From NCBI GenBank assembly GCA_048213135.1, contig PS015109.1, positions 140,327 through 195,116 of the forward strand: a DNA stretch of 54,790 nt, written 5' to 3'. The stretch's first letter is position 1; each line of letters begins with the position of its first letter. The notes beneath the pieces were generated by a model. That model worked only from the letters and a program-made list of their open reading frames with translations. It was not told the origin of the DNA and did no database searches. Source of the DNA: Reclinomonas americana ATCC 50394 (lineage: Eukaryota). A program made the position numbers and the translations under genes. Shown piece by piece: positions 10,010-54,790 of this stretch.

Positions 10010-10010
<1 letters not shown>

Positions 10011-10050
<40 letters not shown>
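10011..10050. repeat. (AC)n microsatellite
   Basis: 20 AC units. Confidence 0.95.
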
Positions 10051-10052
<2 letters not shown>

Positions 10053-10256
10053 GAAACCTACTGCTGCCTCAAGACCGGTGTTTGCGTTGACGTGTTGGAT
10101 ACGATTGGACTTCAAGACAGCTGTTGCTTGTTTGTTGGTGAATAAATTATTGTAGTTGTTGTTGTTATTCTCACCAGAGGAAGCCGCCGCCTTGGTGACT
10201 TATTTAGCTCCATTTTCTGTTCTTTCATCACACACTCCTTGTTCATTTCTTCTCGA

Positions 10257-11305
10257 CTACACCACATTGATCACCTTCACCACCGTTGCCGCCGTCGCCG
10301 TCGACAACAAATCTCGGAAGTTCCAACCTGCGCGGTACATGAAACCTCGCCTTGAGTAACCACACACCTCCTCGGCCACCGACTGGCGACAAAAAGAAAC
10401 ATCACCCTCACTCACCAAGGAATGCAAAGAACGCAATCTTCAGGGGCTCGTTGACCAGAATGTCTGCGACAACAACATGAAGCAACAAGAGGTCAGCAGT
10501 GTTCCGAATACAAAAGTCGCTCATGTCACCGTCGCACCTTGGGCCTGCAGTCACAGCGAGACACACTCATTTAGATTCAAGACAAACTCATTGTTGACAA
10601 GACAGGCTGTCACTCACCACTGGTGATTTGCAACGAGAAGCAGACATCGATCGTCATTCGATAGTACATGGAGAAAAGAAGAGAGTGAGGCAACAGCCAA
10701 TTGCGACACTTGTTGACACACATGCTTATCGTCTCACTCTCGCAACCCAAAGGCACAAACAATTTCATGTTTCTCCGCTATTTCTCTCTCCTCTTGCTCC
10801 TCTCCCTTCTTCAACCACTCTTCCCTTCACATATCTCTCTACATGTCTGTCTCCTCTCTCTCTCTCGCTCTGTCATATTGCTTCTTTCTTTCTGCATGCG
10901 CCCCTCTCCCTCCGCTTCTGTCACTCTCTCCCCTCCCTTTGCCTCTCCTCCCCTCCGCCCTCCTCTCCTTCACGCACCACTGTCACACACACAAACAACT
11001 CGTCAGCAAAAACATCGAGAAAAGAAAAGAGCAACAACACTTCCACACGCACCTTATTCCACATGCCGACGCAATGAGACCTCCATTGCCCGCCGCCTCC
11101 AAGTCCTTCATCACTCTGTACGACGCAAACACCTGTGAGTATCTCCAAAAGGCGCACGATACTCGCAACCACAACTCACCTCGACGCCGTGATAAGAGTC
11201 ATGATAATGAGGAAGGCTCCGGCGAGCCTGCAAGAAATTGACAAACTTATCAGTTCAGCTGTGTTAACTTTACTGGTATTGTAGCCCTCCCATCTTCTCC
11301 TTTTC

Positions 11306-11337
<32 letters not shown>

Positions 11338-29300: not shown

Positions 29301-32300
29301 TGTCGATTGTCGTCGTCACTGTCGTCGGTTGCACGGTCATACCGATCCCTGCCGGCCGACAGGCGTAGCCGAGTTGCAGATCCACCGACAACACACTCAA
29401 CGCCATGTCCAGCGCCACGCCAAAAAGTGTCAGTGTGGACTGAGGAGTGTTCGGGAGTAGGGTGAGCGGCTGCATGGTGGTCGCAATGGCTGTGGAAGGT
29501 AGACGTGCGCATCAGCGGAATACAATGGCAGCAACTGAACTCGTCGTCTCGTACAACTCACCCGTGTGAACCGACTGAGTGCCGTCGCCCGTACCCACGC
29601 GGACGAGGCGACCAATGGGTGCCGCCGCCCACTCCAAGCATACGGCATACACGCCTGGCGCAAGCCCGCGGTTGCCATCAGAGCCGAGCGGCACCTTGAT
29701 TGCACTGCCGTCAATGACGGAGGGATCGGGTACGATCACCGAGGAACCGGGAACGACAACAAATGTGCTTGCAGTTGTGTCGCAGGCACCGGTGGGATCG
29801 AACACCACACGCCGGATGGACAGCGGTGATAGGCCGATACCTTTACGCAGAGACACGGTGAGGAGATCGCCTTGTCAAACGGCGTGTCCATCGCACACAC
29901 ACATACACAAACCGTGCAGCTCCACAGCCGCTGTCGCATCCAGTGCCGCGACAGCCGTGGTGATCAGAGTGTCGACGCGACCGACATACAGCAGTGGTGT
30001 GCCGACGATTGGAACCAGTGTTCCAGGTGTGTTGAGTGTGTAGTCCACACAAATCTGCGAGTCATTGATGAGGCCAGGTTGCGTGCGCACCAACACCAAC
30101 AATCATGTTCACACCTGATACACGGTTGCTGGCAAACCACCAGAAGGAACGACGATTACCAGTTGTGTATCGGCGGTCGAGGCACTCGCAGACAGTGAGC
30201 ATGAAAGCCGACTGGCAACTGGCGATGCCGAGCAGGCTCCGACGGCGGTGGGTGACTGCACGGGAACCAGGAACACAGAGCGCACATTTGCGCCAGGCTG
30301 AAGACTGTATCCGCTCAGAATCAGGGCGGCAGAAGAGTCGGCGGCCAACAGGGTTCGTGGTGAGAAGGAGTCAACACCAACTGATGGAACAGCAGAATTC
30401 AATCAATCACCACTGGAGAACATACACGCGCAAGCAGTACCGACAACCCCCCACACACACCGACGACAAGTTCCGTGGTCCCGAGTTTCGAGTACGATCC
30501 AGCAGCAACACGAGTGCTACTAACATCGACACACACGCTCCACCTCCCCGACGGTGTCAACGGCGCTCCGCCAATGGCCACCTGCAGCTCTGAGGGACTA
30601 GTTGCCACAAAGTCTGCCAGCACAAAGCTGCGCACAATGGCAGACGCCGGCGGTGCCACTCCAAACGAGCATGCACTCGAACCGAGTTCGAGACGCGCGC
30701 CACGCAGCAATGCAAGCGTGAGATTCACACCCTGCAGCGTCAACGATGCATTACCTCCCGCAGTGGCTACCGTGGATGGTGCAAATGATTGGAAACCTGC
30801 AGCGATGCACGAGAGAGAGATATGAGCGGGCAAGGAAAGCGAAATCGCTGTTGCATCTCCATCATGCTCACCTCCTCCACACATAGCATCCGTGTCGAAC
30901 AGCGGAGGGCACGAGCATGATCCGTTGCCCGTCACGCCGTCAGAGCACGCGCCTCCGTTCTGACACTGACACGCAGTGCTGCATCGATTGTCGTACCAAC
31001 CGCGCTCACAGTTGCTGCACCCCGTGGACGCCGACACGTGCGGAAGGCATGTTCCGCAATTTCCTGACGGATCGCGCAGCGCCGTGCATCGACAGAGACC
31101 ACTGCCTTGCACGCCGTCATCACACGTGCCACCGTTGCTGCACGACGGGCAAATGCCAGCACAGCGCCGGCCATATCGACCCGCCGGGCACTGGCAGGTG
31201 AGGCCGCCGCCACTCGAAACACATCTGCGTGTCGAAAAGGGAACGGCGACTTGTGAGCAAAGATAGAATGGGAGAAAAGGCGAATCCAAGTGCGAAACGA
31301 AGAGTTTCCTTGGCAGTTGCATCGCGCTACAGATTCACCAATGAGATGAGTAACCAGCAAGCAGACTGTGGTGTGCGGCCATGAACTCACAAGAGCACAC
31401 AGGTCCAGTGAGGCCGCCAGTACAAGCAATCGTCGTAAACGACAGCACCGTACCGCGCAGAGGCGATGACAAGTCGATAACACGATAAAAGTACGTGGTG
31501 GAGGGGAGCAGTGGCGACGCAGTGAGTGACATGGGGTTGTTCCCGGCAGGAATCGTGGGAATGCTCGACTCGGCGAGTTTGATACGCCGCACGACATTGT
31601 TCCCCGTATCTAGCACACATGCAGAACGATCAGCAACAAGTGGACAGCCAAGATAAGGATGCGAATGGTGAGCGGAAGCGACACGAACCGGCTACGAACA
31701 GAGCTCCCGATTTGATGGAATCAAGAACGAGAGCACCCTGGTGTCAGCAGCAGCAGAAAGCATCAGTGAAGCTCATTCAAAGACAAGACCCCTCAACAGC
31801 AATCTCACGAAACTGGACTGCGGAAGCTCGCACTCGTCGCTGGACCATCGGCAGAGCCCGCCAACGCCAGTGCACTCGACAATGACGTCGTCACTTGTCC
31901 AGTGGCAACATCCACTTGCCGAATGGCATGATTGGCAGTCTGCATAAAAAGAATATGAGACGCTGCTTGCACTCTACAATGCAACTCAATAAACGCAACG
32001 TCCACCACATAGAGAAGACCACCGAGGACGTCAAATGCCACATCGGAGGGGCTGCTGAAGCGTGCATTGGCACCGATGCCGTCGGCGAGCGCAGGAGTGG
32101 TCGACATGCTTCCGGCCACCGTGGTCATGATCCCCGACTGCAGATTGAAGCGACGAATGGCATTGTTCCCGGTGTCAGCCACATACAATGCACGTGCCAC
32201 CGGATCGAGGGCCAGTCCAGATGGGTGATTGAGCAGGGTGGCGGAAGAGCCAGCAGTGCCCGCTTGACCAACGAGGGTCGTTGTCACACCGACAACGGAC

Positions 32301-35300
32301 ACGCGCCTGCAGCAATGATTGAGGGAGACGACAAAGAGAGGCACGATGGTGCCGCACAGCAATAGCACGAACCGCACAACATGGTTGCCCCAGTCAGCCA
32401 CATAAATGCACTCTTGGGCGTCAACGTAGTCCATGGCTAGTCCTCGCGGACTCGACAGCTGCGCGGCGGCGCCAATGCCATCCGTGAAGGCTGGTCGACC
32501 GCTTCCAACCACAGTGTACATGGTGCCGGCGGCCAGACGACGCAATGCGTGATTGTTGCTCTGTTTCACACACACACACACAAGAAAAAATAAGTGAGAT
32601 AAGCAAAGCATGCCACTTTCATGTAAGCGTACGCACATCCGAAATGTAGACTTGCGCGGAATACGCGTCGACAATGACATACGATGGGCTGCAAAACAGA
32701 CAAACAGTGAGTAAATGGCGAAGCGCTCGAAAATGAGCACATGCAGGCAGCAGACCTGGAAAGCCTGGCTGTAGTCAGCGCTGCACCGTTGATGAAGCCA
32801 CTGACCATGGGCTGCCCGGCCAGTCGAATGACGGCGCCAGTCGTCGAGTCAATGGAGCTCACAGTGTGTTGGCTGATATAAATGCCGCACGATGAGCGGA
32901 GCTCATTAACAATTATGGGATGGCCAAACACCCACCTCGCATCGACGACCACCAGGTTCCCCACACTGTCTACTGCAACGCTCTGCTCCACAACGGCAGT
33001 AGTGATTGAGCAAACCATGCGAGACAGCGGGTACGCACGATACGCACTTGCAAGCTGCCGAAGCCAGCGGCAGGTACGGTAGACACTTGAGGTGACGAGC
33101 CGAACGCATCCGACGTGAGCGCAATGGAGAATCGAGGATTGGCTGACGGTGCACCGTTGAGGACCAGCGACGCTTGCAGGATTGCAGATACGGCGGAAGC
33201 ATTGGTCGCCGCCACAGTCGACAGCAGCGGAACTGCAAACGCGCGAGTGAACAACGTCATGCAACATGCGTCACAGAGAAAAATGCCAAAAAAACTACGT
33301 ACGTGTAGTGGTGGTTGAGTGTGAGATCGTTCCACGTTGTGTCGATGTTGTGTCTGTCAATCGGTACAGGTACGTGGAGTTTGGCAGCAACCCGGTAACA
33401 ATGGCGCTGAATTGGTTGGCGGTAGACGTCGCCGAGCCGCCGAGCCGCCACGATGGGATCGAGATCCGTCGAACTGCATTCGAGGCTGCCAACAAAATGT
33501 CAGTGAATGTCGAACGGTGAGGCACCAATTCTCACAGTACGCACTGACGACGGCCAATGAACCCTGCTTCTGATTGACGCACAGTCCGCGCTACATGGGA
33601 GACGATATACGCAACATGAGAACCTCACTGACACTCAACCACAAGAATGTACACACACCAAATCGCTAAACTGTGCCGTGGCGGCAGCGCCGTTTGCATA
33701 TCCCGCCTGGCCAGCCACGCCAGCCACCGTGGTGACAGTGCCGTCACTGGTCGATACTGAACGGATTATCTTGTTGCCAACCTGAAACAAGAAAGAGAAA
33801 AGGGAATTGAGCGCTTAAAAAGCAACACAGAGCGAGCGAATCAGACAACGAAACGTCAGCCACATAAAGGACATTGGCCAGCGGATCCAAATCCATCGTT
33901 TCCGGCTGGTTGAAGCGCGCAGCCGACGCAACGCCATCCGCCGTGCCGGTGGAAGACATCATACCCGCCAGCGTAGACACGGTTCCAGTGGCCAGCTCGA
34001 TTACACGAATGACAGAGTTGTTGCGATCGGCGACAAACACGAGTTGACGAGAGACATCCACGGCCACGGCCGTGGGCCCGTTGAAGCGTGCGGTCAGCGC
34101 GGAGCCATTGGACGTGCCAGTAACGCCAGCTTGGCCCGCCACGGTGGTGGTGACTCCCGAGAACGACACGCGACGAATCAGATGATTGCCAAAGTCGGCC
34201 ACATACACGCACTCACGACCGGTGCTGTTGTCGATGGCGATGCCGCGCGGCTGCGTAAATGATGCAGCAGTACCGACGCCGTCCGCGGCTCCACTGCTAC
34301 CAGTGCCGGCCAGTGTCGACATGGAGCCACCAGTCACACGCCGTACCGCATGATTGCCGTACTGCAATGACCAACAAGTGAGATTGTCGGGAAAGAAAGA
34401 TCAATCAAAAAATGCGCCACACAACGCAACATCTGCGACGTAAGTATCTCCTGTGGCCACATCGACTCTGACATGCATCGGGCTGCGACGGATCTCTGTC
34501 AGCATAAAAATAACCACGCAAGAGCGCGACAAAAGAAAAATGCACGAAACGATCGCAGGGTGGCCGTAGCAAGTGCACCGTTGGTGAATCTGGAGGTGCA
34601 CATGTTGGTTCTCTCGTTAGCAATGGAAACAACACAAGTACTCATCACAGTAAACAGCGCACAGACCCTTCCATTCCCAGCAATCCAGCAAAAGTGGACA
34701 CGGCGCCCGACGCGGACACAAGTCGAATAGCGTGGTTGCTGCACAGTATACGACATGAGGTACAATTGTTGTCATTTCCAAATCAGCAACGCGAACGCAC
34801 CCAGCATCGGCCACATACACATTCCCGCTCCCATCAGCCGCCGCACCCTGTGTGCGTCACAAAAGAGAGAAGGGAGGTCAGTGACATCGACCGATGATGG
34901 AAAACAATGGGTGTCGGCGACGTACGGCAGGCTGGTTGAAACGCGCCGATGCACCGATAGCCGAGTCGGTAGATCCAGTGCTGGCTGGATCGCCTGCCAA
35001 TGCCGTCACCGACATAGAGGACAGGAATTGCGTCTGTTGTGTTGCCAGCTCAAACACAGGTTGAGCAGCGCCACTCGCAACCACGGTTCCCACAAGTGTC
35101 ATTGCGTTGTGTGACACCGCGGTGGCTTGCCCAGTGGTCACCGTGGGCGCTTCGCGGAATCGAAATGCGTGTCAACCTCAAGCGTTCTGAGAGCAGGAAT
35201 CACAGCACAATGAAAGCTCACCCGACAGCGTGGTGAAATTAAGCACCGAGCCGTGTGTGCCATTGTCGAGACCAACACGGAAAACATATGCGGACTGTGG

Positions 35301-38300
35301 ACTGAGTTGACCGATTGATAGACTCACAGCGGCGCTGCTGGAACCAGTGACCGAGGATGGGGAGCCAGCAATATCCGGTGCCGGAATGGTCACTCGCCGC
35401 ACAGTGTTCGTCCCATCTGTGAATGCGGAGGTGAGTGAGGTGGGAGAGGGGAGAGGGAGGGGGCAAAAGAAGTGACATTGTACCTGAAACTAAGAGAGCC
35501 ATGTTCGTGGCATCAAATGCAACACCGATCTGTCACCACCACATGATCAGCAACGACTTCAAAGCTGATCCACGACACGAGGCACAAACCGGCGACGTGA
35601 AACGAGTCGCAGATGCATCTCCAGATGAGGATCCGGACGCTCCTACCAAGCCCAGCAAGGTGCGCACAATGCCGTTGGGTGAAATCTGACGAATAATGTG
35701 ACTATCCGTCTGTGAAAACCCCGAGAGAATGGAAAACACCATGAGCAGCCGGAACAAATCACTTCAGAAAACACAGTGATCCGCAACATCGGCGACAAAC
35801 AGCGTGCCGCTCACAGGATCTAGTGCGAGTCCGTTGGCAGCACTGAACTGCGCCACCGACGGCGGCCCGTCCACGGCACCCGCCAAGCCACTCCGTCCAG
35901 TCACCGTCGATACAGTCAAAGTGGCGAGGTCCATGCGCCGAACCGAAAACGAACCCGAATCCAACACAAACAGCACACTACGCGCAGCATCCACCACCAC
36001 GGCGGTGGGGGCGATAAACCTCGCATCGGTTCCGACACCGTCAGTGGATCCAGCTGCGGCTGCACTGCCGGCGACAGTCGTCACGCTGCCAAACACCGTA
36101 ACCATTCTGCATGCATTGAAACATTAGTGCGAGAGAAGCGAGCAATCACCGTCATCGCCATAGGGGCTCACCGAATCGCGTGATTGTCCTTGTCGGCAAC
36201 GTATATCAACTGCGTGCGAGGATCCACAGCCACACCGGTGGGGTGATTGAGTTGCGCCGCAGAAGCCACACCGTCGCTGCTGCCGACGGATCCATTGCCA
36301 CACACGGTGGAAACCGAGCCACCAGATACACGTCGCAATGTATTGTTGCCAGACTGTGATAAACAACAACATGAGCAACAGGAAAGACAAGCAACTGCCA
36401 GACTCTTGCTCACCTCGACAATGTACAAATCACCAGAAGTGTTATCAACAGCCACACCATACGGACTACACAAGCAGCGAATGAGGGAGAGGCCAGAAAA
36501 CCGGCAAGAATGGATGAATAACAAACAAACCCATTCAGCGTTGCCGTTGCAACGGGGCCGTCCACCATCCCGCTAGAGCCTCGCACACCAGCGGCGGTGG
36601 TGACATTGCCAGCGGTGTCCATTTTGCGAACCAATGAATTACTACGTGGCACAAGTCAGAAGACTACTGGATGACGACAAACGACGATCGTAGTGAAACG
36701 CAACTCATATTCTGCAATGTAGGCGTTACCGCTGATGTCCAAGCACACGTGCTGGTGGAGAGAAAAAATTAATGTGCGTGAGAAGGATTGCTAATAAATA
36801 TCTCCGCGTGCTGAGCACATACCCGCATGCCGTGGAAGGTGGCCACGTTTCCTGCACCATCTGCGCTGCCAGTCATGCCAACCGATCCGGCAACCAATGG
36901 CGATGTTACGCTGGCGGTCAATGCAGAAGCTTGGCGAGCAACATTGAACGCCGTCGCCGCGGGCTGACTGCCACCAGTGTTTACGGTGCCATTTAGGACG
37001 GCCGTTGTGGATGCCACACTGGTCGCCGCAGCAGTTGCGACAGTCGCACCTACGTGGCGCAATAAGCGGATCTCATCGGGCACACACAGAAACAAAACGC
37101 GCAAGCATGTAATTGATGCAAACCTGGAGTGGTAAACAGCACAGAGGAGCTACGGTAGGTGCCAGCCGCCACTCGCATGTTGTATGCTACCGCTGGTTGC
37201 AGTCGCTGCACCGCTACCGACACTGTAACATCAGTGCTGCCGGAGGCGACAGACAACGGCGTGCCGGGAATGGAGGAGGCAGGTAGTTGTACTTGTCGGA
37301 TCACGTGACCTGCTGCGTCTGTGGAAATAGTCAGCAACACAAGCACAGCTGCGGAAACAATCATGAGCAGGTAGTTGATCATCACCTGCAACAATCAAGC
37401 TCTGTGTGGCCGCCGAGAACTCCACACCCCGCTGCGAACAGCTGGTAAGTATCGCGGCACTCAATTGCATGCGAGAGAGGGAAAGAAACACCAACCAGCT
37501 GCTGGAACCTGCTGCTCGAACCACCACCTACTGCCGATCCGTTGACTCCGTAGGCTCCCGCCAGTGTGCTCACCATGCACGACGGAGAGATCATACGCAC
37601 CACATTACTCTGATACTGCAGCACAGAAGGGGGGAGAAAGTCAGGTACGAACTCGCTTTGTAACAGCTGAACTGCGATAACGCAACGTCGGTTGCGTAGA
37701 GATTTCCCGAGTACGGATCAAGTGCCAGTCCTCGAGGAGAATCAGATACAACAGCCGCACATGGGCCAGCCACAGTATTCACAGCAATGGCGCCTCCGGC
37801 AAATGTCATGACTTCCATCGTTAGCAGACTCAGCCGCCGTATCGCATGGTTGCCAACATCGCCAATGTATAGCATCGAGTTCCGAATGTCAAGCGCCAAC
37901 GCGCTGGGTGCGTTGAAGCGAGCAGCACTGCCGATGCCATCAGCACTCCCTGACACAGTTGCAGTCCCGGCAATGGTCGTCACCGTGCCATCGAAGGTCA
38001 CTTGCCTGCGAGCGAGAAACGGAAGAGGGAGTAAATCAGTACAGGGCTGAAAACGGGAAGCACGAAGCATGTGATATAACGGAGGGGAAACAAGGGAGTG
38101 CACATATGCCAGGTGACAGCAAAAGATATCATTCACAGGACAACACACTCACATACAAATGAAACAAAGCCACCATAGCACGTACCGAATAGTGTGAGAT
38201 GCCGTGTCGGCAACGTAAAGGACCCGAGCGAGGCAACTGGCGGTCACCGCACTCGGCGAATTGAACTGAGCAGAAGGCGAATCGCTGCTGCCCGCCCCCA

Positions 38301-41300
38301 GTCCAGCAAGGGTTGACACGTAGCCAGATGACCATCGCCGAATCTTATTGTTTCCGTTCTGCGAAGACACCAACAAAGTCGATAAGCACGCACTAGTCTC
38401 GCTACATAACCCCCACCGCCCACGCACATCGACGATAAAGAACTCCGCCGAGGCATCACACAGTTCAATGTCGATAGGACTGCAAAACGAGAAGCAAATC
38501 ATTAAGGAGAAGAAAGACGCTGACCGACAAGCACGAATCGCAACCAACGCAACGTATTCAGCGTGGCCACAGAAACGGGACCGTCAACACTACCAGCGGT
38601 GTATGGCTTCCCGACCACCGTTGTCGTGTCACCGGCGGTGGAGATCTTGCGCACGGTATGCGTGCTACATACATGCACCGAGACGTGAGAAGAGCTCAAT
38701 ATCATGAAACACGGCAAGGACACGAAGCGCAACATCGAGTCTCCAACGTAGGCGTTTCCAAGAAAGTCAACTGCAACACCCTGCACAATCCCATCGTCGA
38801 AGGAAAACACACTCATATCAGCAAATAAAGTACAATCCCGCACCAACGCGCGTAATGAACAACTGCGGCACACCGTCGGCGACTCAAACTGTGCAGAAGC
38901 ACCAGAGCCATCGACATTGCCGCCCGATGAACCCGCCAGCGATACAACAGTCGCAGGTCGGTCGAATGCGCCGGTAACTTGCGCCAACTCGAAGGCCACT
39001 GCCAGATCTAGAGGACCACCTTCGTGAACATTCACCAAGCCGTTCAAGGTGGCCGATGTGGACGACAAATTGGTGGCTGGTTGTGCAGCTATCGAGGGCG
39101 CTGTATCGACGAAATGTAGAGTGAGTTCAAACAAGACACGCAATCATACTGAAGATTAGAAGAATCCAACAAACGTACCGAGCGTCGTGAATGATAAAAG
39201 GTTTCCACGCCCAGACGAGATTGTGTCTATCAAGCGGAAAAAGTACGACGACTGGGGCAGTAGTGCTGCAAGGGAGAGAGACACTGCAGTGCTCGTCGTT
39301 CCTGTGACCGAACTCGGGGACGCCACAAGCGTACTTGGCGGCAATGAGACGCGTCGCACACATTCGCCTTGTGGCCCTGCCGACACGGATGTCGTTGGTT
39401 CGAGTAAATGAACATGCAAACACAGTGAACGCAAGTACACACCGGCGACAAGCAGACTCCAGCTCGTGGGGTCAAAGGCCACACCAGCCTGTTGACGCGC
39501 AATCGAATGAGCGAAGATGAGAAGATGCCACAAGAAGCATGTCGGCGAACGCCACTCGCGTCAAGGGAAAGATGCGCACGAGACACGACGTTGAATGCCG
39601 GAGTGAGAGAAGCCCGCAATCACAGAGAGCATAAAGGAAGAACATCCCAGCGAGCATGTGCTGCATCCCCCCGTCGTGTACCACATACCGGTTGGTTGAA
39701 TCGAGACGCCGATCCGATGCCGTCCACGGTGCTCGCTAATCCGCAAGCACCAGCAATGGTCGTCACAGCGAGAACACTAGTGATGCTGCGTATAATATCA
39801 TTCGAAGTCTGCAAGCACAAAGTGACCACATTACAAAAATGCTGATCACACTGCAAATGTTGAACGAAGAAAAAAACGTGCAAACAAGGGCGCAACATCG
39901 GCAACATATATAGTGCTCGTCACCGCATCAACCGACACCGACTGTGGGGACATAAACCGAGCGGCTGTGGCCGTTCCATCCAGGCACCCACTGGTCCCAG
40001 ACAACCCGGCATATGTGGTAACGGTCATCCCAGCGAGCGCAATCCTCCGAATGGAATGATTCCCCTGATCGGCAACATACAGGAAACCGCGACCAACATC
40101 CAATGCCAGTCCGGTCGGATTGTTGAAGGAGGCAGCCAATCCCTGCGCGTCAACAGTGCCGGCGCTGCCGGACATTCCCGACACAGTGGTCACTGAGCCG
40201 CTGTACGTTACACGGCTACAAACAAAAAGAAGCAGACAAATAACGGTGAGCGACTTCCGCAATGTACTCGCAGTAGCAAAACTTTGCTTCTGCAGTCTCA
40301 CCGAATCGTGTGATTGCCCGAGTCGCTGACGTACATAAACGCGGAGTTTGTGTCGACCGCAATGCCGGAAGGTTGGTTGAACAGGGCGGAACTCCCCGGA
40401 CCGTCAACACTGCCAGCAGTGGAACCAGCCAGTGTGGAGACGTAACCGGAGGAGATCTTGCGGATCGCATGGTTCAGGGTCTACAACAAGCAAAGTGTCA
40501 GCAATGGAGACGAGGACAACAGTTGACTAACAGGAGGCCACCCACCGACGCGACGTACAGGTCGCCGTTCACCAAGTCACATCCAACATCAGAGGGGCTA
40601 AGAAGCGAGATGAGTAGTGAATGCCGTAAATGATACGCGCAGGGGAACGAAACGAGTTGAAAGTGGCTACAGAGATCGGGCCGTTAACGAATCCGCTGGT
40701 CCCAGCCAGACCCGCCACAGTGCTCACGACGCCTGCTGCGGTGACCTTGCGGATGGTGTGCGATCTGGAAAAAACGAGAGATACATGAGCAAAAGAGTAT
40801 GAAGCAGAAAAAGGAGATTGACGAAAGCGCACCCTTTCTCGGCAACAAAAGCAGTGCCAGAAACATCAATGCACATGCGCTGTGCGAGACAACAGGATCG
40901 TGAGATAGACCCGCGCATCACAGCAATTGATCCAAGAACCGATGAATGCAACGCACAGCCAATGCCGAGAACCGAACAGCCGTGCCGACGCCGTCTACGG
41001 TGCCACTGGCACCAGTGGCGCCGGCCAGTGTAGAGACAGTCGCCGGCGCACCAAACAAGCTTACCGAACGCGCCACCTCGAATACAGTGTTGGTCGTCGC
41101 CCCAGTGGCATTTGGGTTCACCTGTCCACGAAGAGTCGCAGTACTCGCGGTAGCGTCAGTGACAGCCGATGTTGTCACCAGAGGCACTGAGAACACGAGG
41201 CACTGCACGTCAAGCAAAGATCACAGGCGCAACGCACGTGCATATTATGCGACGAACCGACAGGCGTCTGGAACGCACGCACTCCACTCCGCTGCAGTGT

Positions 41301-44300: not shown

Positions 44301-47300
44301 NNNNNNNNNNNNNNNNNNNNNNNNNNNNNNNNNNNNNNNNNNNNNNNNNNNNNNNNNNNNNNNNNNNNNNNNNNNNNNNNNNNNNNNNNNNNNNNNNNNN
44401 NNNNNNNNNNNNNNNNNNNNNNNNNNNNNNNNNNNNNNNNNNNNNNNNNNNNNNNNNNNNNNNNNNNCCACAACAAATTCAGCAGCATGCACAAGCAATC
44501 CAAAACAAGGCATACAAGGCACAAACCGGGTGATTCAGCGTGGCCACCGACGATGATCCATCAGTAGATCCCGCCACACTGACTAACCCAATCAGAGTCG
44601 AGACTGCGCCACTCGAGATGGAGATTTGTCGCACGGTGTAATTGTTAATCTGCAAAAAAAGGCAAAAGGTTAAGTCCGATCATCAACAACTTGAAAAATA
44701 CAAACTGCTCAAGGAAACCCAACGTCGGTGACATAGAGCACGCCGAGTACAGGATCGAGAGCCAGTCCAGATGGTCCACTAAAGCGGGCCGCAGATGCCG
44801 TGCCGTCAGCGACACCGGCAGACGACCCAGCAACACCGGCCAGCGTCGACACTGCCAGAGTAGCCAGATCGACACGACGAATGGCGTTGTTTTCGTAATC
44901 TGCAACAAAGAGCACTCCGCCGGTAGTGTCGAGGGCAACGCCTATCGGGGCACGGAAACGGGCAGCACTGCCAACGCCATCAGCACTGCCAGCGTTGCCG
45001 GCGGAGCCCACGAGAGTTGTAACAACGCCAATCGACGAAACGCGACTGTAACACGGCTATCAGCTTGCAAGAGAGGAAAACAAGGAGAGTACATGTCCAC
45101 AAAAAAGAACGGTACATGAACTTGGAATATCTGTGATGCACTGAAGCACGCACAACGCACACTCGTATTCCCTCGTGTCGACAGAATAAGAGACCAGCAC
45201 ACTCACCGAATGCACTGGTTTAAATACTCAGGCACATACACGGCCCCTGACACTGACGACACTGCCAGGCCAGCAGGGCTGTGGAACGATGCAGACGCAC
45301 CAGTGCCGTCCGCGCTGCCGGCGACGCCTGAGCCGGCGAGAGTCGACACGATACCAGATGAAATCACTCGAATTGTGTTGTTGCCGTCCTGTGCAGCATT
45401 AAGTGAATGCAATGCCCGCGGATAATATAATACTCCTTGTTGCACAAACCTCAGAGACAAACACGGTACCAGAAGAGTCAATGGCAATTCCACGAGGCCT
45501 GGTGCACAAGAATACATGAGGTGCAATGATACAAGGAGCAATGAGGTCTACCGAGCTCAAAGAAACGAACTTTGAGAACAATGCGACCGATGTGGAGCCG
45601 TTCACCAACCCAGACATCCCAGCTTGTCCAGCAATCGTGCTGACCACGCCCGCATAGGCGACTCGGCGAATCATGTGATTGCTTGAGAGAGAGAGAGAGA
45701 GTCAGCAACACAAACGCGATAGGAGTCAAGCAGAACGTGCGCACTTATAGTCTGTGACGAGCATGTCGCCATTCACATCCTGAGCAACGCCCTATGCGGA
45801 GAAAGAGAATAAAATGAGACGATGCTTGGAAACGAAAACGACACTCAAAAAGAATAACCCAAAGGTCGTTGAATCGTGCAGATGATCCAGTGCCGTCTGC
45901 AGAACCACCCATTCCGGCACTGCCAGCCACAGTTGTAACAGTGATTTGACTGCCGAATGCCAACATGCTGACCGCCAACTCAAATGTGTTGCCTGTGGAC
46001 GGTGCGCCCTGCGCATTGACCTGACCCGCCAGTGTCACCGACGACGATAGCACGTTGCTTGCCGCCATTGTCGTTACCGTCGGTGCTGGAAGGATAGAAT
46101 GTGTAAGGATATAATACTACGAAGCGCAGGTGCACAATGCATAGAGAAACCCGACACATATTCACAGCGAGAAGAAATAGATTCACAAATCAGCGCACCT
46201 GGAGATGTTTGGAACGCACGCACTCCACTCCGTTGCAGCGTCACACTGTCCACAAATCGGAAAAAGTACGTGACCGACGGCATCAGATTCGTCAGCGACA
46301 AGGACACGTTGACTGCCATGGTTCCCGTCGCCGTCGCCGGTGATCCCGTGATCGACGCAGGTGAAACAACAATTTTACGAATCGTGTTGTTTCCCGTGTC
46401 TGTGCACACACGCAAGAAGGGAAGCACACACAAATCCAAAAAACGTGAGATGAGATACCAGAGGGTGCTGAGACTTCTCTCTCATAAGCACACGCACCTG
46501 CAACAAACAATCCGCCGCGGAATCGATCAACAACAACCCCTTGCTGCACAATCATCAAAAGCAATGAGCCGTCTGCAACACGAGAAAGAATAGACACGCT
46601 AAGNNNNNNNNNNNNNNNNNNNNNNNNNNNNNNNNNNNNNNNNNNNNNNNNNNNNNNNNNNNNNNNNNNNNNNNNNNNNNNNNNNNNNNNNNNNNNNNNN
46701 NNNNNNNNNNNNNNNNNNNNNNNNNNNNNNNNNNNNNNNNNNNNNNNNNNNNNNNNNNNNNNNNNNNNNNNNNNNNNNNNNNNNNAACACACAAACACAC
46801 AGAGAGAGAGGGAGAAAGAGAGAGAGTAGTGCGCACACTCACCGGGATGTTGAACCGAGCAATCACCGCAAGTCCATCCGCCGACCCACTGCTCCCCGCA
46901 ACACCTGCAATAGTCGTCACCGCACCTGCCGCACTCACTTGTCGAATGTGTTGTCCCTGCACAACCAACAGCAAGCGACAGGAGGGGAATAAAAGCACAG
47001 TGGGTGAGTGAAGAACAGCAGTCCGCAGTTCAGATTTTCGCAGACACACACACGCAACATCGGCAACATAAATCACATTCGCCACCGGATCCACACCGAC
47101 ACCAAACGGTCGATTGAAATGCGCACTCACTCCCGTGCCATCACTCGTACCCGTAACACCAAGCTCGCCCGCCAGAGTCGTCACAGTCGACGTCGCAAGC
47201 ACAATCTTGCGCACCGCAAAGTTGCTCGAATCCGCCACATACAGCGCACCACGCCCATCCAGCGCCACATCGGTCGGGAAATTGAACCTCGCTGCAGACC

Positions 47301-50300
47301 CGACTCCATCAATCAGTCCAGCCGTCCCGAGTGTACCAGCTACAGTTGTCGCGATGCCGCTGAATGACACACGTCTGTGCGCACACACGGGTTGGGTGAG
47401 TCATCTTACTCCATGATGCAACAAGGCATGCAAGACAATGCAACTCACCGCACACTGTGATTCTGATACTCGGCAACATACACGCACTCAGCTGCGCTGT
47501 CCACCGCCAGACCGCGCGGTCCATTGAACCGTACGGCGCTACCAATACCATTCACAGCGCCCGCACTGCCATTGCCAGCCACAGTCGACACTGTGCTGCC
47601 AGACACGTTGCGAAGTACATGATTCGAATCCTGCATACCAAACGCACGCACAAGCCACTTTAGACATTGCCATCACGCGCGCTCTTTCTCTCTCTCTCCT
47701 TCTCTTACACCACACACACGCGCATGTCACAGAACACGTGGACATCAACGCAGCGACATCACTTCTCTCTCTCTCTCTCTATCTCTCTCTCCCTCCTCTC
47801 TCTCTCTCACTCTCTCTCTCTCCTTCACCCTTCATCATATGTCCACACACCTCGCTAAAGTACAGATCGCCTGTTGCCAGATTGATGTCGATGCCGTATG
47901 GACTGCAAGACAAAGAAAAGACCCAAATGAGACGACTTGCAGCCAAGCACACAACCACCAGCTCAGCTCAGCACAGCCCCAGCATAGCGCAACTTATTCA
48001 GCAAGGCCGACGACACTGCACCGTCAGTATATCCAGAAGTACCAGCCTGTCCGACAAGCGTGCTCACCGCACCCGACGAATTGATCTTGCGAATCGTGTG
48101 CCCACCGCTGCATAACAGCAGAGAGAGAGAGAGAAAGACGATGAGTAACAGTGAATCGATGCACAGAATGCAAATGACAACGCAGTTGTACACGAAACGT
48201 TGCCACATACACGTTGAACGATGCATCAATGCACAGATTCTGTCGCGGAAAGACACGTGTGAGGAGTCGGTAACAATCGCATCCACACCACAAGAAAATA
48301 CGGGAGACATCAAACCGTCGGTGACACGAATCGCGCCGCACCACCCGTGCCGTCCGTGCTTCCACTCATGCCCGCCGTGCCAGCCACAGTCGACACACTC
48401 ACAGACAACCCGAAGGCGTCTTGCGTGAATGCAAGCTCAAACACATTGTTGGTGGTGACACCAGCACCGTTCGGGTTCACAGTAGCGGGGAGCGTGGCGG
48501 TGGTGGATAGAATGTTTGTCGCCGATGCCGAGGTGACGGTCGGCGCTGCGGAAAAAGGAACACCGGGGTATGAGTGAAACCAAATCCCTGGTGGCAGAAT
48601 CCGCGAGCTGGCTATTACCTTGAACGGTGAACGAGAGAATCGAGCCCCGAATAGAGGTCGACGAATCGACAGCTCTGTAGTAGTACGTGGCACCACTGAC
48701 AAGCGGGGTAACAGTAGCGCTGACGCTTGTATCCGTCGTTCCAGTTGCACTGGAGGGCGAGCCTGTAATCGACGACGGTGGCAGGCTGAGACGGCGAATG
48801 ACGTGGTTATTGGAATCTGCGGGTACAGAATCGCGATGAATCACAAGCACAGAACACAAGCCAGCATAGACCGACGACAACCCACCTGCAATAAGGAGTC
48901 CATTGGCTCGCACGTCAAACGCCAAGCCTTGCTGCATCGTCAAGGAGATGAGATTTGGCAGAGTGTTAGCGACACTTGCAAGTCGACACGATCGAGCACA
49001 GCAACGAAACTGGCGAGTAGAACAACGGATTGGTTCCCTGTGTAAGACCATGGGTTCCGGCAGTTCCCGCAATGGAACTCACTGATCCGGTCGACGGCAC
49101 AATGCGGCGGATTGTGTGACTCGCAGACTACATGAGGAGACACAACAAGATCAGCACCCAAGCACATGCAACATCCAACACAGGCACATCCTCGACCCGC
49201 CACGAAACATCCGCCACATACAGCACTGAAGCCACCAAATCAACTGCTATTCCGACAGGAGTGCTGAACGACGCTCCTGCGCCAACTCCATCGCTGCTCC
49301 CACTATTGCCGTTTGAAAGGCCAGCGACCGTTGTAACAGCCAGCGTCGACAAGTTGACCTGGCGAATGGCGTTGTTGCCACCGTCCGACACATACAACAC
49401 GCCTCGCCGGTGATCTAGAGCCACTCCAGACGGTGATCTCAGTCGCGCAGCCGCACCAATGCCGTTGACGAATCCAGGCTGACCAGCAAGACCGACCAGC
49501 GATGTGAGAGTGCCACCAAAGGACACTCGGCTGTGTACAAGGATTGAACACGCAGAAAGCCGGCAGCACAAACAAGCATACATACAGCAGGGTCATCAGC
49601 CAACACTAGCCACGTTTGAGACTTGAACAACGACATGACGACATACGCACACGACAACATGGTTTGACGAGGCTGCGACAAATATGCACTCGCTATTGAC
49701 ATCCACGGCCGTGCCACATGGTTGCGACAATCTTGCTGCGGTACCGACACCTTCGGCGAATCCCGACATTCCGTTGCCGACCAAGGTGGTGAGCGTTGCG
49801 CCGGTAAGCTCGCGCACTACGTGATTGGAGCTCTGGATACGCCGACATGATACGAGAAGCAAGGAGTGGTAAAATGAGGAAAAAGGATGCAGCACACATT
49901 GACATGAGGGTGGGTGCGTTTTGTTCTCACCTCACTAATGTACACAGAGCCTGTCTGAGAATTGACGTCGAGTCCGCATGGTCTGCAAGGCAGAAGTGCG
50001 TAAGACGATCGGCACTTCGAAAGGAACGTATCAAAGTGTGGCGCACGTGTTCATGAGCGACGACAATGCTGGACCGGAAGTGTAGCCACTCATGTTTGAC
50101 TGCCCGGCAATGGTTGTCACCTGACCGGCTGCGGAAATGCTGCGAACTGTATGTGCTCTGCATTGTTTCAAGAGAACGCATCAGAGATGAAGGCAGAGGG
50201 AGCAATGTCGCACTGACAATGATGAGGAGACACGAAACAAGCTATTGGCGGCGTACGTGACGCCAGCCGTGTCCGTACACACGCCCTGTCGACAGCAGAA

Positions 50301-53300
50301 TCAACCTTCAGCGCCGGAACGCTCACAACGAGAACACAGCAATCGACGCACATAAGGGCTGTAAAATGTGGCAGCGGTTCCGAGACCATCAACGGAACCA
50401 CCTGGTGCGCCAAATTGACCGGCGAATGTGGACGCAGAAACCGGAGCTCCAAACGCCGCCATTGTGGTGCTCACTTCGAACACGTTACCAGTGGTATTAT
50501 CCGGATCGCCAGCGTTAACTGTTGAGTTTACAGTCGCTGACACCGACGACAGGCTGGACACCGCATTGGTTGTCACCGTAGACGCTAAAAAGATGTTTAG
50601 CGTGTATCAGAAATCAGGCCAAGTGAGAGAAATCTCTCGCGAAAGAAATGTAAATACCTGCCAGCGTTGCAAATGACTGCGTCAGGCCACGGACAGCAGA
50701 GACCGTGTCGGTCACCCTGTAATAGTATGTGGTTGCAGGCAGCAGCTGCAACACCGTGGCTGTAATAGCGGCGTTGGTGTTGCCGGTAACCGGTGATGGC
50801 GCGCCAGGAACGGAGAACGTGCCGAGTGCAATACGGCGGATTGTGAAGTTCGTGACCTCTGTGGAGACAAAATTATGTACGTGCACAGCGCGATGCAAAG
50901 AGTGGAAAACTACCGCATACCAGACACGACAAGATACCGGTTCGACGAATTCAAGGCAAGCCCGACCTGCACATGGTGGCGACACGCAATGAAAATGGGT
51001 ACAACAGCGCGTGCTGAACACGTTTCGAAACAGACGTACCGGCCCGTTGAGGCGCGCATTGCTTCCCAGCCCGTTTGCATACGCGCCAGCACCCGCAGAG
51101 CCCATCACAGTCGTCACTTGTCCAGCAGCAGTGACTTGCCGTATGGTGTGATTGGCAGTCTGTAATGCATACGCAAGTGAACCCAAGAGGAAGCATGACT
51201 GCAGTGCGCCTCCGCATGTATGTGTGTGCCAACTCGCGAATCACGGACGCAACGTCGGAAACGTACAGTAGATTGGCCAGCACATCGACCACCACCGACT
51301 GCGGCGCACTAAACGAGGCCGCCGACCCGAGACCGTCGTTACTGCCAGGCGTTCCAGCAACGCCGGCGATGGTAGTCAACGTGGTCGTTGACAAAACGAG
51401 CTTGCGCAGCACATGGCTGCCACTGTCGACATGATAGAGGATCGCACGACCAGAATCGAGAGCGAGACCCGCCGGCAGATTCAGTCGGGCAGAGCTACCC
51501 ACACCGTCCTGAATGCCTTGCACGCCAAACGATCCCACCAAGACGGCAGTCAATCCAGAGTAGAATACGCGACTGTTGGCGCCACAAGTAAGCAAATAAC
51601 TGGACAAATGCGGGAGACAAACAAGAGAAGGAAAAGAGGGATTGTAATGCAGAGTGAAAGAGAGAAAGAGAGAGACTTCTACTCTCCCACATGATACGCA
51701 CCGAATGACGCGATTAGTAGAATCCGACACATACATGACTTGTGCGACTGCGTCCACGGCAATGGCGACGGGCGACGCGAATTTCGCCGCAGTACCAATA
51801 CCATCCACAGTGCCACTCGTGCCACCCACAAAAGTCGACACGGTGCCTCCCGACACTTTGCGAATGGCGACATTCAACACCTGTGTCACAGAATTCTATC
51901 AGCACCGCACATCACTGAAAAGGGACACTCGTCGCCCACGAACATCGCAAACATACAGCGCGCCAGTTTGCACATCACAGCCAACATCAGAAGGGCTACA
52001 TGAGTGACAGGAGGGAGATGAGTGGCAATGCATTTCAAATATATAACCTACTTGAGACAACAGACCTGTTGAAAGTTGCAGTTGTCGATGACCCGTCGGT
52101 GAATCCGGTAGTACCGGCGATACCAGCCACCGTGCTCACCACTCCCGACTCCGTAACCCTTCGAATCACATGGGCACTGTGTCGTGTGCGCGAAATTAGC
52201 AAAAAAACGGAGAGAGAATTAGAAAACTCGGTGGTGACTCATGCAACGCCGACCTCTTGTCAGCCAACACAGCTGCGCCTGTCGACTCGATGCACATGCG
52301 CTGGAAGGGAGGAGNNNNNNNNNNNNNNNNNNNNNNNNNNNNNNNNNNNNNNNNNNNNNNNNNNNNNNNNNNNNNNNNNNNNNNNNNNNNNNNNNNNNNN
52401 NNNNNNNNNNNNNNNNNNNNNNNNNNNNNNNNNNNNNNNNNNNNNNNNNNNNNNNNNNNNNNNNNNNNNNNNNNNNNNNNNNNNNNNNNNNNNNNNNNNN
52501 NNNNNNNNNNNNNNNNNNNNNNNNNNNNNNNNNNNNNNNNNNNNNNNNNNNNNNNNNNNNNNNNNNNNNNNNNNNNNNNNNNNNNNNNNNNNNNNNNNNN
52601 NNNNNNNNNNNNNNNNNNNNNNNNNNNNNNNNNNNNNNNNNNNNNNNNNNNNNNNNNNNNNNNNNNNNNNNNNNNNNNNNNNNNNNNNNNNNNNNNNNNN
52701 NNNNNNNNNNNNNNNNNNNNNNNNNNNNNNNNNNNNNNNNNNNNNNNNNNNNNNNNNNNNNNNNNNNNNNNNNNNNNNNNNNNNNNNNNNNNNNNNNNNN
52801 NNNNAGAGAGAGAGAGAGACGATCGGTAATGGATAAGGAACAAAACATGCAGCGAACAATAAAATGATCAAAACGACACACCTGCGGGGCAGTGAACGTG
52901 GCAGCCGATCCAGTGCCGTCCGCGTTGCCAGAAACTCCCAGAGAGCCAGCCAGCAAGGAGGCCGATATGGCGGAATCGAATTGCGACAACGAGGTGCCGA
53001 CATCGAACGAACCCTGAACACCTGCGCCATTCTTGGCATTCACCAACGCCAGTAGAATGACCGAGGATTGAGTCACCGAAATCGACACGCCAGTGGTGAC
53101 AACAGGAGCTGTTCAGTACGACAGAGGCACCAATGTCAACGATTCTTTTCAGCAGCGCAAACGGGAGTAGCACAATTGTACCTTGCAGTGTGGTGAGCGA
53201 CTGCACAGCACCGTGCTGACCAGTGATGCTATCAATGGCTCGGTAGTAGTACGTGGTTGACGGCCGCAACCACGAGACATTGGCTGTGATGTTGATGGTG

Positions 53301-54701
53301 CTGGTACCAGTAGAGCTGGCTGGACTCGCTGCGACGAGTGAAGGCGGCAGCGATATCCGACGAACGAGGTGGTTTCCCTTTTCTGCAATCCGCAAACGCA
53401 TGAATGAGAAGTCATGGGTGAACAACAAATGCGAAACTAATCTAAAGAGAGACACAGAAAGAGAGGCAGGTAAGCAGGTATCAGATTTGCAGCCGACGTG
53501 CACAACCAGTATCTATCCACTTTTCTTGGTAAAAGTCACCAAACCTGCAATAACCAGTCCGCCATTGATAAAATCAAGTGCCACGCCATACTGTATAACA
53601 ACGGGTGAGCGGCACGAACGCAACAATACATGCAAGTCCACGAACCGGGTTAAACATTGTGGCCACTGACGTTGAGCCGTCTGCAGAGCCGGTCACGCTG
53701 GCCAAACCGACAAGAGTCGAAACTGCGCCACTCGAGACGGACACTTGTCGCACGGTGCAACTGGTCAGCTGCAAAGGCCATGCGATGCAGTCAATACGGT
53801 AGTAATCCCCAAAGCACAGCAAATGTCGACGGCCACGCAACATCGGTCACATACAGCACGCCGACAATTGGATCGAGAGCCAGTCCTGTTGGTCCATTGA
53901 AGCGAGCATCTGAGGCCGCCCCATCAGCCACGCCAGCCGCCGACCCCGCAACACCTGCCAGTGTCGACACTGCCAGCGACGCCAGGTCGACACGTCGGAT
54001 GGCGTTGTTGACGGAATCTGCAATGAACAGCGCGGAGCCAGATGCGTCGAGGGTGATTCCCAACGGCGAGTTGAAGCGCGCAGCAACGCCAACGCCATCA
54101 GCGGTGCCAGCAGTGCCAGCGGAACCGACAAGAGCAATCACCACGCCAGTTGATGAAATGCGACTGGGAGCGCAAACAATCAGCACAGGGGAGAAGGGGG
54201 AGTGGAGAGAGGGAGAGAGAAAGGAGAAGAAGAAGAAACAAAAGAAGGAGGAGGAAGAAGAAGTGGAAGAAGAAGATGATGAAGAAGAAGAGAAGAAGAA
54301 GAAGAAGAAATGAAGAAGAAGAAAATGAAAAAGAAGATGAAGAAGAAGAGAAGGAGAAGAGAAGGAGAAGAGAAGGAGAAGAGAAGGAGAAGAGAAGGAG
54401 AAGAGAAGGAGAAGAGAAGGAGAAGAGAAGAAAAAGAAAGAACGAAAAGAAGAAGAACAAGAACAAGAAGAACAAAAACAACAAAAAGAACAAGAACAAG
54501 AACGAGAACAACAAGAAGAACAAGAAGAAGAACAAGAACAAGAACAAGAACAAGAAGAAGGAGAAAAAGAGAAGAAGGAGAAGAAGACGGAGATGACTGA
54601 CTACCGACAAAGATGAAACGATAACAATAACAAATCACATGTATGGCATCGGAAGGACACCTAAGCAGCAGGCACGCAGAGACGAGAACACGCGCGCGCC
54701 G

Positions 54702-54751
<50 letters not shown>

Positions 54752-54790
54752 GGCCAACTCACCGAATGCAGTGACCTGACAAATTCAGCG
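10257..54790 (-). CDS. Giant polycystin-1-like (REJ-GAIN/GPS-5TM) cell-surface receptor with NHL/FN3, EGF and Ig-like ectodomain; 5' end lies beyond the window
   Basis: Continuous series of minus-strand exons with GT-AG introns. Domain order: NHL/FN3 modules > EGF > Ig-like > FN3 > REJ > GAIN/GPS > TM1-5. Likely last exon 10327-10257 (GWNFRDLLSTATAATVVKVINVV*). Not every exon junction was resolved, especially within 11800-18400. Confidence 0.82.
10416..20740 (-). other. Polycystin-1-type TM1-TM5 region with a long cytoplasmic TM3-TM4 loop
   Basis: TM1 STFVIVVCAYC/VIYLVQLYIGYKLD (about 20580-20730); NHSWMSTIVCPNADRFRRTQRTT/TLWFAVCLALYCNAVF (19850-20030, like the PKD1 HxWxS...FTRxQR + TM2); TM3 GVIMAPVVWIVSQVFKR (about 18590-18640); TM4 DLPLALVPWTFVILWLAGAFLIIMTLI (11180-11842); TM5 LLLLHVVVADILVNEPLKIAFFAFL (10416-10490, PKD1-type EPLK). 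Confidence 0.8.
12372..13160. repeat. Intronic approximately 110-bp minisatellite
   Basis: Unit cccatcccgtctcgct...cttccgcctaaatgctcttttctcttcacctttcacctttctcttctccc starts at about 12375, 12488, 12598 and 12709, with degenerate copies afterwards. Confidence 0.8.
21397..21597 (-). other. GPS autoproteolysis motif at the end of a GAIN domain (GAIN about 21400-24400)
   Basis: After removing intron 21544-21480: CVYWNETQSAWRSDGCSTYARVASGTRDVVSFVCLCNHMTDFSV, matching C-x-(Y/F)W...W...GC...C-x-C-x-H-(L/M)|T-x-F. Confidence 0.92.
23965..24250. repeat. (CTCCCT/CTCACC)n and (CCCTTT)n hexamer repeats in an intron
   Basis: Directly visible; these give rise to the low-complexity GEGE/LSLS ORFs. Confidence 0.95.
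24440..26000 (-). other. REJ (receptor for egg jelly/PKD) domain
   Basis: VDPD...FNWGC; LTGGLQYVFEL; PTVGILEVTPLSGVARSTAFTFTMSEFIDVDLP; VGVSARDTFGGAVDVTTTIAV. These match the characteristic REJ motifs PxxGxxxVxPxxG.A..TxFTF...DxDLP and VxVxDxxG. Confidence 0.8.
26150..27880 (-). other. Two FN3-like domains
   Basis: RPQNVTL...LCVVTGLLPNTNYTFSV (27580-27880) and LCTLAGLEAATGYYDLYVRTV (26150-26300) resemble the FN3 LxPxTxY tyrosine-corner motif. Confidence 0.6.
26520..27306. repeat. (CTCA)n tetramer and (CTCCCT)n hexamer repeats in an intron
   Basis: CTCA run at about 26575-26850 and CTCCCT run at 27223-27306. Confidence 0.95.
27970..30797 (-). repeat. Seven approximately 110-120 aa Ig/IPT-like repeats with two conserved Cys
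   Basis: Units begin with xxPxTL....SLTLxGxxL, have a central Cys, and end with (Y/W)xVC(V/L/F)(D/E/N): WSVCVD, ICVD, YAVCLE, WVICVN, YTVCVD, YVMCFD, YVVCVD. Confidence 0.7.
30870..31420 (-). other. EGF / laminin-EGF-like repeats
   Basis: CQCPAGRYGRRCAGICPSCSNGGTCDDGVQGSGLCRC ... CERGWYDNRCSTACQCQNGGACSDGVTGNGSCSCPP (ORF 30399-31322). Confidence 0.88.
41262..48546. repeat. Dispersed duplication: module 46200-48546 is a close copy of module 41262-43485
   Basis: 41865-42600 and 46874-47610 are nearly identical including introns (the ORFs at 41585-42379 and 46555-47388 share almost the same translation). Flanking parts are more diverged. Confidence 0.92.
54190..54750. repeat. (AAG/AAC)n and (GA)n low-complexity tracts within intron 54164-54762
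   Basis: Directly visible. The intron is bounded by CG|GTGAGT and cccag|T and restores the frame HCIR/RISSTG. Confidence 0.9.

Follow-up and report, generated by a model that had tools for sequence, protein, structure and literature searches.

A tandem array of modules in an intron-rich gene

The stretch of DNA considered here, hereafter the window, comprises 54,790 nucleotides of contig PS015109.1 from the eukaryote Reclinomonas americana ATCC 50394, and it carries a series of repeating modules on the minus strand between positions 31431 and 54790. Each module consists of an N-terminal segment that resembles the first part of an FN3-like domain (the N flank), a set of NHL β-propeller blades and a C-terminal segment that resembles the remainder of the FN3-like domain (the C flank). 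There is no long open reading frame (ORF) in any frame across this region, which is instead composed of ORF pieces separated by short GT-AG introns, and the whole array reads as one putative intron-rich eukaryotic gene that continues past the window end at 54790. Bacterial contamination was considered as a source of the array and is ruled out by the GT-AG introns of conserved phase.

The flanks were counted with phmmer, using the translated flank exons of the module that starts at 48546 as queries against the six-frame set of 1649 stop-to-stop ORF pieces from the window. Ten full-length N flanks were recovered, with E-values ranging from 8e-43 (self) to 3.5e-6, together with 11 C flanks, with E-values from 8e-39 (self) to 7.5e-5, all of them on the minus strand. 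No N-flank match at E <1 lies outside 31-54.8 kb, and nothing comparable to the C flank is found elsewhere in the window. The total of ten complete modules and one that is cut at the window end agrees with the "at least 11" of an earlier reading of the same DNA (the original prediction), whose module coordinates were also right. The literal N-flank consensus that it offered has a narrower reach, holding for the modules at 48546 and 43485, which are recent duplicates and 81% identical, but not for the other N flanks, which are 21-51% identical to it.

Along the array N flanks, NHL blades and C flanks alternate strictly, with a module length of roughly 430 residues. At all ten junctions from a C flank to the following N flank, a candidate phase-1 GT-AG intron of about 68-113 nt would keep the reading frame, and the 3' end of the array is formed by a C flank, after which there is no further N flank and EGF-like sequence comes next. 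The exons are not cut at the borders between the FN3 and NHL parts, as the N-flank exon enters blade 1 and the C-flank exon starts within blade 6. An iterated blade profile finds six NHL blade motifs in eight of the ten complete modules (Table 1), among them the module at 48546-46199, for which six blades had originally been proposed. The blades are of a long type of ~55 residues, and a 217-residue exon piece at 33750-34400 scores 40.9 bits against the Pfam NHL family (PF01436; cut-off 20). The closed six-bladed fold is taken from a model of a bacterial relative, P0286, and not from the window protein.

Two of the modules (41253-43487 and 46194-48548) appear to stem from a recent tandem duplication of a two-module unit of ~5.0 kb; measured between 48546-46200 and 43485-41265, they retain 87-99% DNA identity at a spacing of about 5.0 kb, introns included. 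An older copy relates 43551-45016 to 53180-54134 at 76-80% DNA identity. Such segmental duplicates may be how the array grows, or possibly an assembly redundancy.

These near-identical 5-kb duplicates, together with four N gaps in modules and the smaller number of blades in modules 7 and 10, raise the question of whether the locus is a working gene or instead a decaying pseudogene array, or one with a copy number inflated by repeat mis-assembly. Moreover, the window's own protein had no match in either a word-indexed search or a C-flank profile search of 1.84 billion representative proteins. Against such an explanation, which is considered unlikely, the exon pieces are open, the ten junctions splice in frame and in the same phase, and the residues of the fold are kept across copies that are 21-51% identical, which points to purifying selection.

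Table 1. Features of the array and of the exon downstream of it, in window coordinates; flank starts are those of the phmmer matches and blades those of the iterated blade profile
Feature	Position	Strand	N-flank start	C-flank start	Blades detected	Remarks and basis
Array of 11 nested modules, first cut by window end	31431..54790	-				Flank and blade profiles, candidate phase-1 introns
Module 0, cut by window end	53182..54790	-		53377	3	C flank 53377-53189
Module 1	50658..53108	-	53109	50850	6	C flank 50850-50665; N gap 52315-52804 inside
Module 2	48619..50584	-	50585	48811	6	C flank 48811-48626
Module 3 (example of the original prediction)	46199..48545	-	48546	46397	6	N-flank exon 48545-48316, C-flank exon 46399-46199; blades across about 9 exons (read by eye); N gap 46604-46785 intronic
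Module 3, N flank	48403..48546	-				Predicted FN3-like strands A, B, C; 48 residues; alignment; first half of contiguous ~100-residue domains
Module 3, last propeller strand	46359-46397	-				13 residues upstream of C flank
Module 3, C flank	46200..46358	-				Predicted FN3-like strands C', E, F, G; about 53 residues; alignment, PF16656 positions 56-93/93, PDB FN3 E-F-G
Module 4	43553..46085	-	46086	43748	6	C flank 43748-43560; N gap 43960-44467
Module 5	41258..43484	-	43485	41456	6	Recent duplicate of module 3; N gap 41780-41864
Module 6	39179..41186	-	41184	39362	6	C flank 39362-39183
Module 7	37124..39100	-	39101	37307	5	C flank 37307-37155
Module 8	35220..37049	-	37044	35414	6	Candidate donor site ambiguous
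Module 9	33303..35149	-	35150	33483	6	C flank 33483-33322
Module 10, last	31431..33232	-	33230	31607	4	C flank 31607-31431
Cys-rich exon with EGF-like repeats, downstream, probably same gene	30402..31334	-				Pfam EGF PF00008 23.4 bits (cut-off 21.5)

The two flanks and the FN3-like domain

The relationship to FN3 is most readily seen in the C flanks, which match the C-terminal half of the purple acid phosphatase family PF16656 (positions 48-93 of 93, E 1e-3 to 4e-3, 18-20 bits with a cut-off of 30) and, likewise, that of PhoD_N. A profile built from the 11 C flanks matches, with weak scores, the E-F-G strands of many solved FN3 domains, among them those from RsgI, titin, neogenin and fibronectin, the match to RsgI (7CG8) covering residues 68-102 of 105 with an E-value of 5e-4. 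Although the C flanks are only 27-97% identical to one another, the L, Y and R of the E-F strand motif do not vary among the 11 and its P hardly does, and the L-x-P-x-x-T-Y-x-Y-R motif with the Tyr of the tyrosine corner is conserved. As the scores lie below the PF16656 cut-off, the domain is termed FN3-like here and is not treated as a PF16656 member.

When the C-flank profile was run with HMMER against the 1.84 billion representatives, 5939 proteins matched at E ≤ 1e-3, and the best 150 of these were scanned with both the N- and the C-flank profile. In 149 of the 150 the domain is not split, and matches to the N and C profiles recur in turn with a period of ~100 residues. The end of the N profile meets position 14 of the C profile, the residual gap between them having a median of -2 residues in 1016 N-to-C pairs; the C profile's positions 1-13 correspond to the last propeller strand. 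Where units are spaced by other sequence, as in P0171, P0221, P0129 and P0184, a unit consists of an N match followed directly by a C match, and isolated two-match runs among the non-split relatives read N-then-C in 86 cases and C-then-N in 12. One contiguous unit from a relative aligns with PF16656 over positions 8-83 of 93 (E 3.9e-5, 24.6 bits, cut-off 30). Since the flank profiles abut in 149 proteins, the window flanks sum without remainder to one ~100-residue FN3-like domain, with the propeller exactly at the seam.

This also speaks to the suggestion that the flanks do not belong to one domain and are either independent short β elements or low-complexity Ser/Thr-rich linkers that resemble FN3 pieces. 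The lack of a Pfam or PDB match for the N flanks and the sub-threshold FN3 Pfam scores would be in keeping with it; on the other side stand the abutment of both profiles on a single ~100-residue repeat in the 149 proteins, the ordered 3+4 strands given by AlphaFold2 at a predicted local distance difference test (pLDDT) score of around 90, and the conserved L-x-P-x-x-T-Y-x-Y-R motif. Separate flanks of this kind are regarded as very improbable. A two-chain co-fold of a window N flank with a window C flank gave a score of 0.24 against a mark of 0.34 and counts neither for nor against a single domain.

Two of the contiguous relatives are themselves of unusual length, P0129 (6700 aa) and P0184 (6390 aa), and carry an intact flank-type FN3-like domain every ~675 residues.

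Split cassettes in bacteria and their modelled fold

The remaining protein of the best 150 C-flank matches, P0209, has the split layout of the window. A search seeded on its C-flank/N-flank junction yielded 120 proteins, of which 119 were examined and one, P0140, a contiguous array, was left out. Split units composed of an N half, a six-blade propeller and a C half are present in 26 of the 119 proteins, amounting to 62 units in which the halves lie 233-410 residues apart. By size the inserts form two classes, of about 233-264 and about 299-331 residues. Most of the bacterial relatives have the shorter inserts, built from ~42-residue blades of the PknD type, whereas P0274, P0290, P0371 and P0375 carry inserts of about 300-330 residues, which fit the longer blade type of the window.

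In both the window and the split-type bacterial arrays a C half is directly followed by the next N half. The series of halves begins with an N half in 20 of the 26 split-type proteins and finishes with a C half in 25 of the 26; the six that begin with a C flank are probably truncated proteins or have N halves that went undetected. P0346 carries a single stand-alone split unit behind an unrelated N-terminal domain and P0305 has two isolated units, whilst the arrays of P0274, P0290 and P0371 each contain both intact and split domains.

The source names of the split-type relatives include Pirellulales for P0265, which is listed at NCBI as 'MBG domain-containing protein [Pirellulales bacterium]', and Verrucomicrobiota for P0371, listed as 'cadherin-like beta sandwich domain-containing protein [Verrucomicrobiota bacterium]'. 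P0274 is found in a metagenome-assembled genome of a Singulisphaera sp. (locus L001), and a scan of the genome collection returned its own locus and 15 weaker loci. The window N-flank exon can be aligned, colinear across the junction from flank to blade, with each of the three split units of P0274 (45% identity, 75 residues), and the window C-flank exon aligns with P0274 at 40-41% identity over 63 residues, colinear across the junction from blade to flank. As both junctions align with P0274 at 40-45% identity, the cassette is homologous rather than convergent, with one probable origin. A word-indexed search with the N-flank exon gave 113 matches, all through the NHL half, and a flank-profile scan of these found no split unit.

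Judged from these sequences, the predicted nested architecture is real and common in bacteria. The original prediction had allowed that the architecture might turn out to be both common and already described; the first part is borne out by the 26 of 119 proteins, whilst for the second no description of a propeller nested in an FN3-like domain was found in the part of the literature that was consulted. Many of the bacterial matches from the search with the P0209 junction, at 33-40% identity, alternate the same PknD-type propeller with other Ig-like domains, such as ASH and Big_3_5 (PF22073/PF15780/PF16640).

A two-module bacterial relative, P0286, was modelled with AlphaFold2 from an alignment of the 26 split-type proteins. 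The model has a mean pLDDT of 83 and a predicted template modelling (pTM) score of 0.66, is confident over residues 32-720, and contains three strands in each N flank and four in each C flank, the last of which (G) is broken in two. The third strand (C) forms even in the first N flank, although no C flank precedes it. The propeller superimposes on the six-blade NHL structures of PknD and Pizza with Z scores of 37-40 and a root mean square deviation of 1.2-2.1 Å over about 244 residues. The structure matches listed for the two-module model are all propellers and are uninformative on the flanks; similarly, a search of PDB sequences with P0286 gave propeller matches only, with no solved chain spanning flanks and propeller.

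The adjacency of each C flank to the following N flank in the chain, with only a few residues between them, leaves room for a permuted or swapped domain, in which a C flank would fold with the N flank that comes after it and the propellers would be linkers between contiguous sandwiches. The original prediction had itself named such pairing with the halves of neighbouring modules as the outcome that would speak against nesting. All flanks have high pLDDT in the two-module model, an outcome that is compatible with a permuted domain but is silent on pairing partners. The two possible pairings were set against each other in a competition fold of P0286 residues 311-722, which contain C1, N2, propeller 2 and C2 and give a mean pLDDT of 93.3 and a pTM of 0.86. 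C1, of which the own N half is absent, loses strands C' and E and keeps only an F-G hairpin, with pLDDT blocks of 62-92, whereas all strands of N2 and C2 persist, at pLDDT 93-98. The FN3 fold is made of two sheets, A-B-E and C'-C-F-G. The modelled loss of C' and E from C1 would be consistent with this arrangement, and the overall pattern agrees with what a pairing of N2 and C2 on either side of the propeller would be expected to give.

In the competition fold, then, the C flank placed before N2 loses two strands and the C flank placed after the propeller retains all of its strands, which disfavours the permuted pairing. So do the stand-alone N-propeller-C units of P0346 and P0305, the predominance of N halves at the beginning and C halves at the end of the bacterial series, the C flank with which the window array finishes, and the 86 to 12 preference for N-then-C in non-split relatives. 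Moreover, strand G of a textbook FN3 domain ends at the pole opposite to the start of strand A, and a link of 3-5 residues would be too short to bridge the two. A permuted domain is hence given very little credence. The evidence from abutting profiles, split relatives and the models of the relative instead favours the original proposal that the flanks are two halves of one FN3-like domain, and its placement of the propeller after strand C is supported by alignment and model alike, the predicted position being between strands C and C'.

Proposed architecture, relatives and function

Taken together, the array is best read as at least 11 tandem FN3-like sandwiches, each with a nested six-bladed NHL propeller, encoded by one eukaryotic gene and built from a cassette homologous to that of bacteria, a reading to which a probability of about 0.8 is assigned. 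Each module would form one FN3-like β-sandwich of the PhoD_N / purple-acid-phosphatase-N type, in which the chain would exit after strand C, make a full six-bladed NHL propeller and then re-enter the sandwich to supply strands C', E, F and G. Links of a few residues would join consecutive split sandwiches head to tail into a chain of beads with one propeller per bead.

Several observations weigh against this reading. Two complete modules have fewer than six detected blades (5 and 4), and six of the 26 split-type series begin with a C flank. The N flanks alone have no Pfam match and an N-flank profile gave 0 matches at E ≤ 10 among PDB sequences, whilst the FN3-family Pfam scores all lie under the curated cut-offs (18-25 bits versus 30). 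The modelled structures are those of a bacterial relative and not of the spliced window protein, and the strand pairing within it is deduced from DSSP strings and pLDDT, with the orphan C1 half remaining at pLDDT 62-92 rather than collapsing. The gene model is predicted from genomic DNA alone, and the copy number is possibly affected by assembly in view of the four gaps in modules and the two near-identical modules.

The closest known systems are giant secreted proteins of Planctomycetota and Verrucomicrobiota, themselves uncharacterised, which have the cassette, its tandem repetition and both junctions (40-45% identity) in common with the window. These bacterial relatives are intron-less, contain 1-4 split units and often have intact FN3-like, MBG or other Ig-like domains mixed in. 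In contrast, the window array comprises at least 11 units, each spread over about 9 exons, and is followed by EGF-like repeats. Among characterised proteins, the six-bladed NHL sensor of Mycobacterium tuberculosis PknD (1RWI/1RWL) and the Pizza designs derived from it resemble the modelled propeller closely, P0286 matching at Z 37-40 and E 9e-36, but the PknD propeller is free-standing and kinase-tethered and is not nested in another domain. The FN3-like domains of purple acid phosphatase (PF16656), PhoD (PF16655) and RsgI (7CG8) are sandwiches of ~95 residues that resemble the joined flanks; they are contiguous and have no insert, and the window scores under the Pfam cut-offs.

Teneurins provide a further point of comparison. 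A blade piece from the window matches TEN_NHL (PF25021) with 33 bits (cut-off 27.1), and the teneurin-like structure 9IFO aligns to the modelled P0286 propeller with a Z score of 29.4. Neither a YD shell nor any other teneurin part is seen among the window's ORF pieces, where no search was aimed at YD repeats. In teneurins the propeller comes after the FN-plug and is not enclosed by it.

The cassette is homologous to that of giant proteins secreted by Planctomycetota, by Verrucomicrobiota and by other bacteria, and in the eukaryote it would have gained introns and then been multiplied by tandem segmental duplication. The position of the exon borders away from the FN3/NHL borders fits a cassette that was acquired whole, followed by intron gain and then by duplication. 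A more elaborate history remains tentative, and is judged rather less likely than the architecture itself: an old bacterial cassette, one copy of which moved between a Planctomycetota-like bacterium and the eukaryote lineage, gained about nine introns as a unit and was amplified to at least 11 copies, to serve as a giant multivalent cell-surface receptor, for instance in the recognition of bacteria or prey.

With somewhat greater assurance, the protein can be proposed to be an extracellular, multivalent binding protein. The extracellular location is suggested because EGF-like repeats follow the array. Propellers are the usual ligand-binding element of NHL proteins, and the FN3-like beads would give reach, each presenting one propeller that would bind via its faces. 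The C-C' loop is located at the C-terminal pole of the FN3 domain, and the propellers would consequently sit near the joints between beads and not at mid-domain. The original prediction had pictured a rod from which the propellers might project sideways.

Both domain families are ordinary in themselves, and what is most notable is an intron-rich eukaryotic array of at least 11 modules with bacterial relatives that are 40-45% identical across the junctions. Whole-domain insertions are rare and are informative on both protein folding and evolution. In this instance a propeller of ~250-330 residues would be tolerated in a loop of a sandwich of ~100 residues, an arrangement that has been reused dozens of times in bacteria and in one eukaryote. 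For annotation, such nesting accounts for the 'half' FN3 matches with which domain scanners flank the NHL repeats of many giant proteins. In the eukaryote, the gene would encode a giant extracellular protein, probably of bacterial ancestry, the growth of which can be traced via its modules, intron phases and recent duplications.

Downstream of the array, the Cys-rich exon at 30402-31334 also scores 28 bits against hEGF, which is below the cut-off of 29.3. It is followed on the minus strand, between 27936 and 30400, by ORF pieces of 120-314 residues with repeated Ig/IPT-like wording that have no Pfam match at E ≤ 0.01 and are probably further extracellular domains of the array gene. At the opposite end, module 0 contains an AAG/CTT microsatellite of about 125 units (54221-54587) that is probably intronic.

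The rest of the window bears two further features. From about 10000 to 27000, both strands contain pyrimidine/purine-skewed, Ser/Leu/Pro-rich low-complexity stretches with a GC skew reaching -0.6 and many CT/GA microsatellites; two ORF pieces, 25772-26338 and 27377-28300, were compared with protein families and gave no match. Finally, an intron-less ORF of 776 residues on the minus strand (2157-4487), unrelated to the nested array, encodes 14 very similar WD40 repeats after a short N-terminal region (Pfam WD40, 565 bits), and the similarity of its repeats looks like the result of recent homogenisation.

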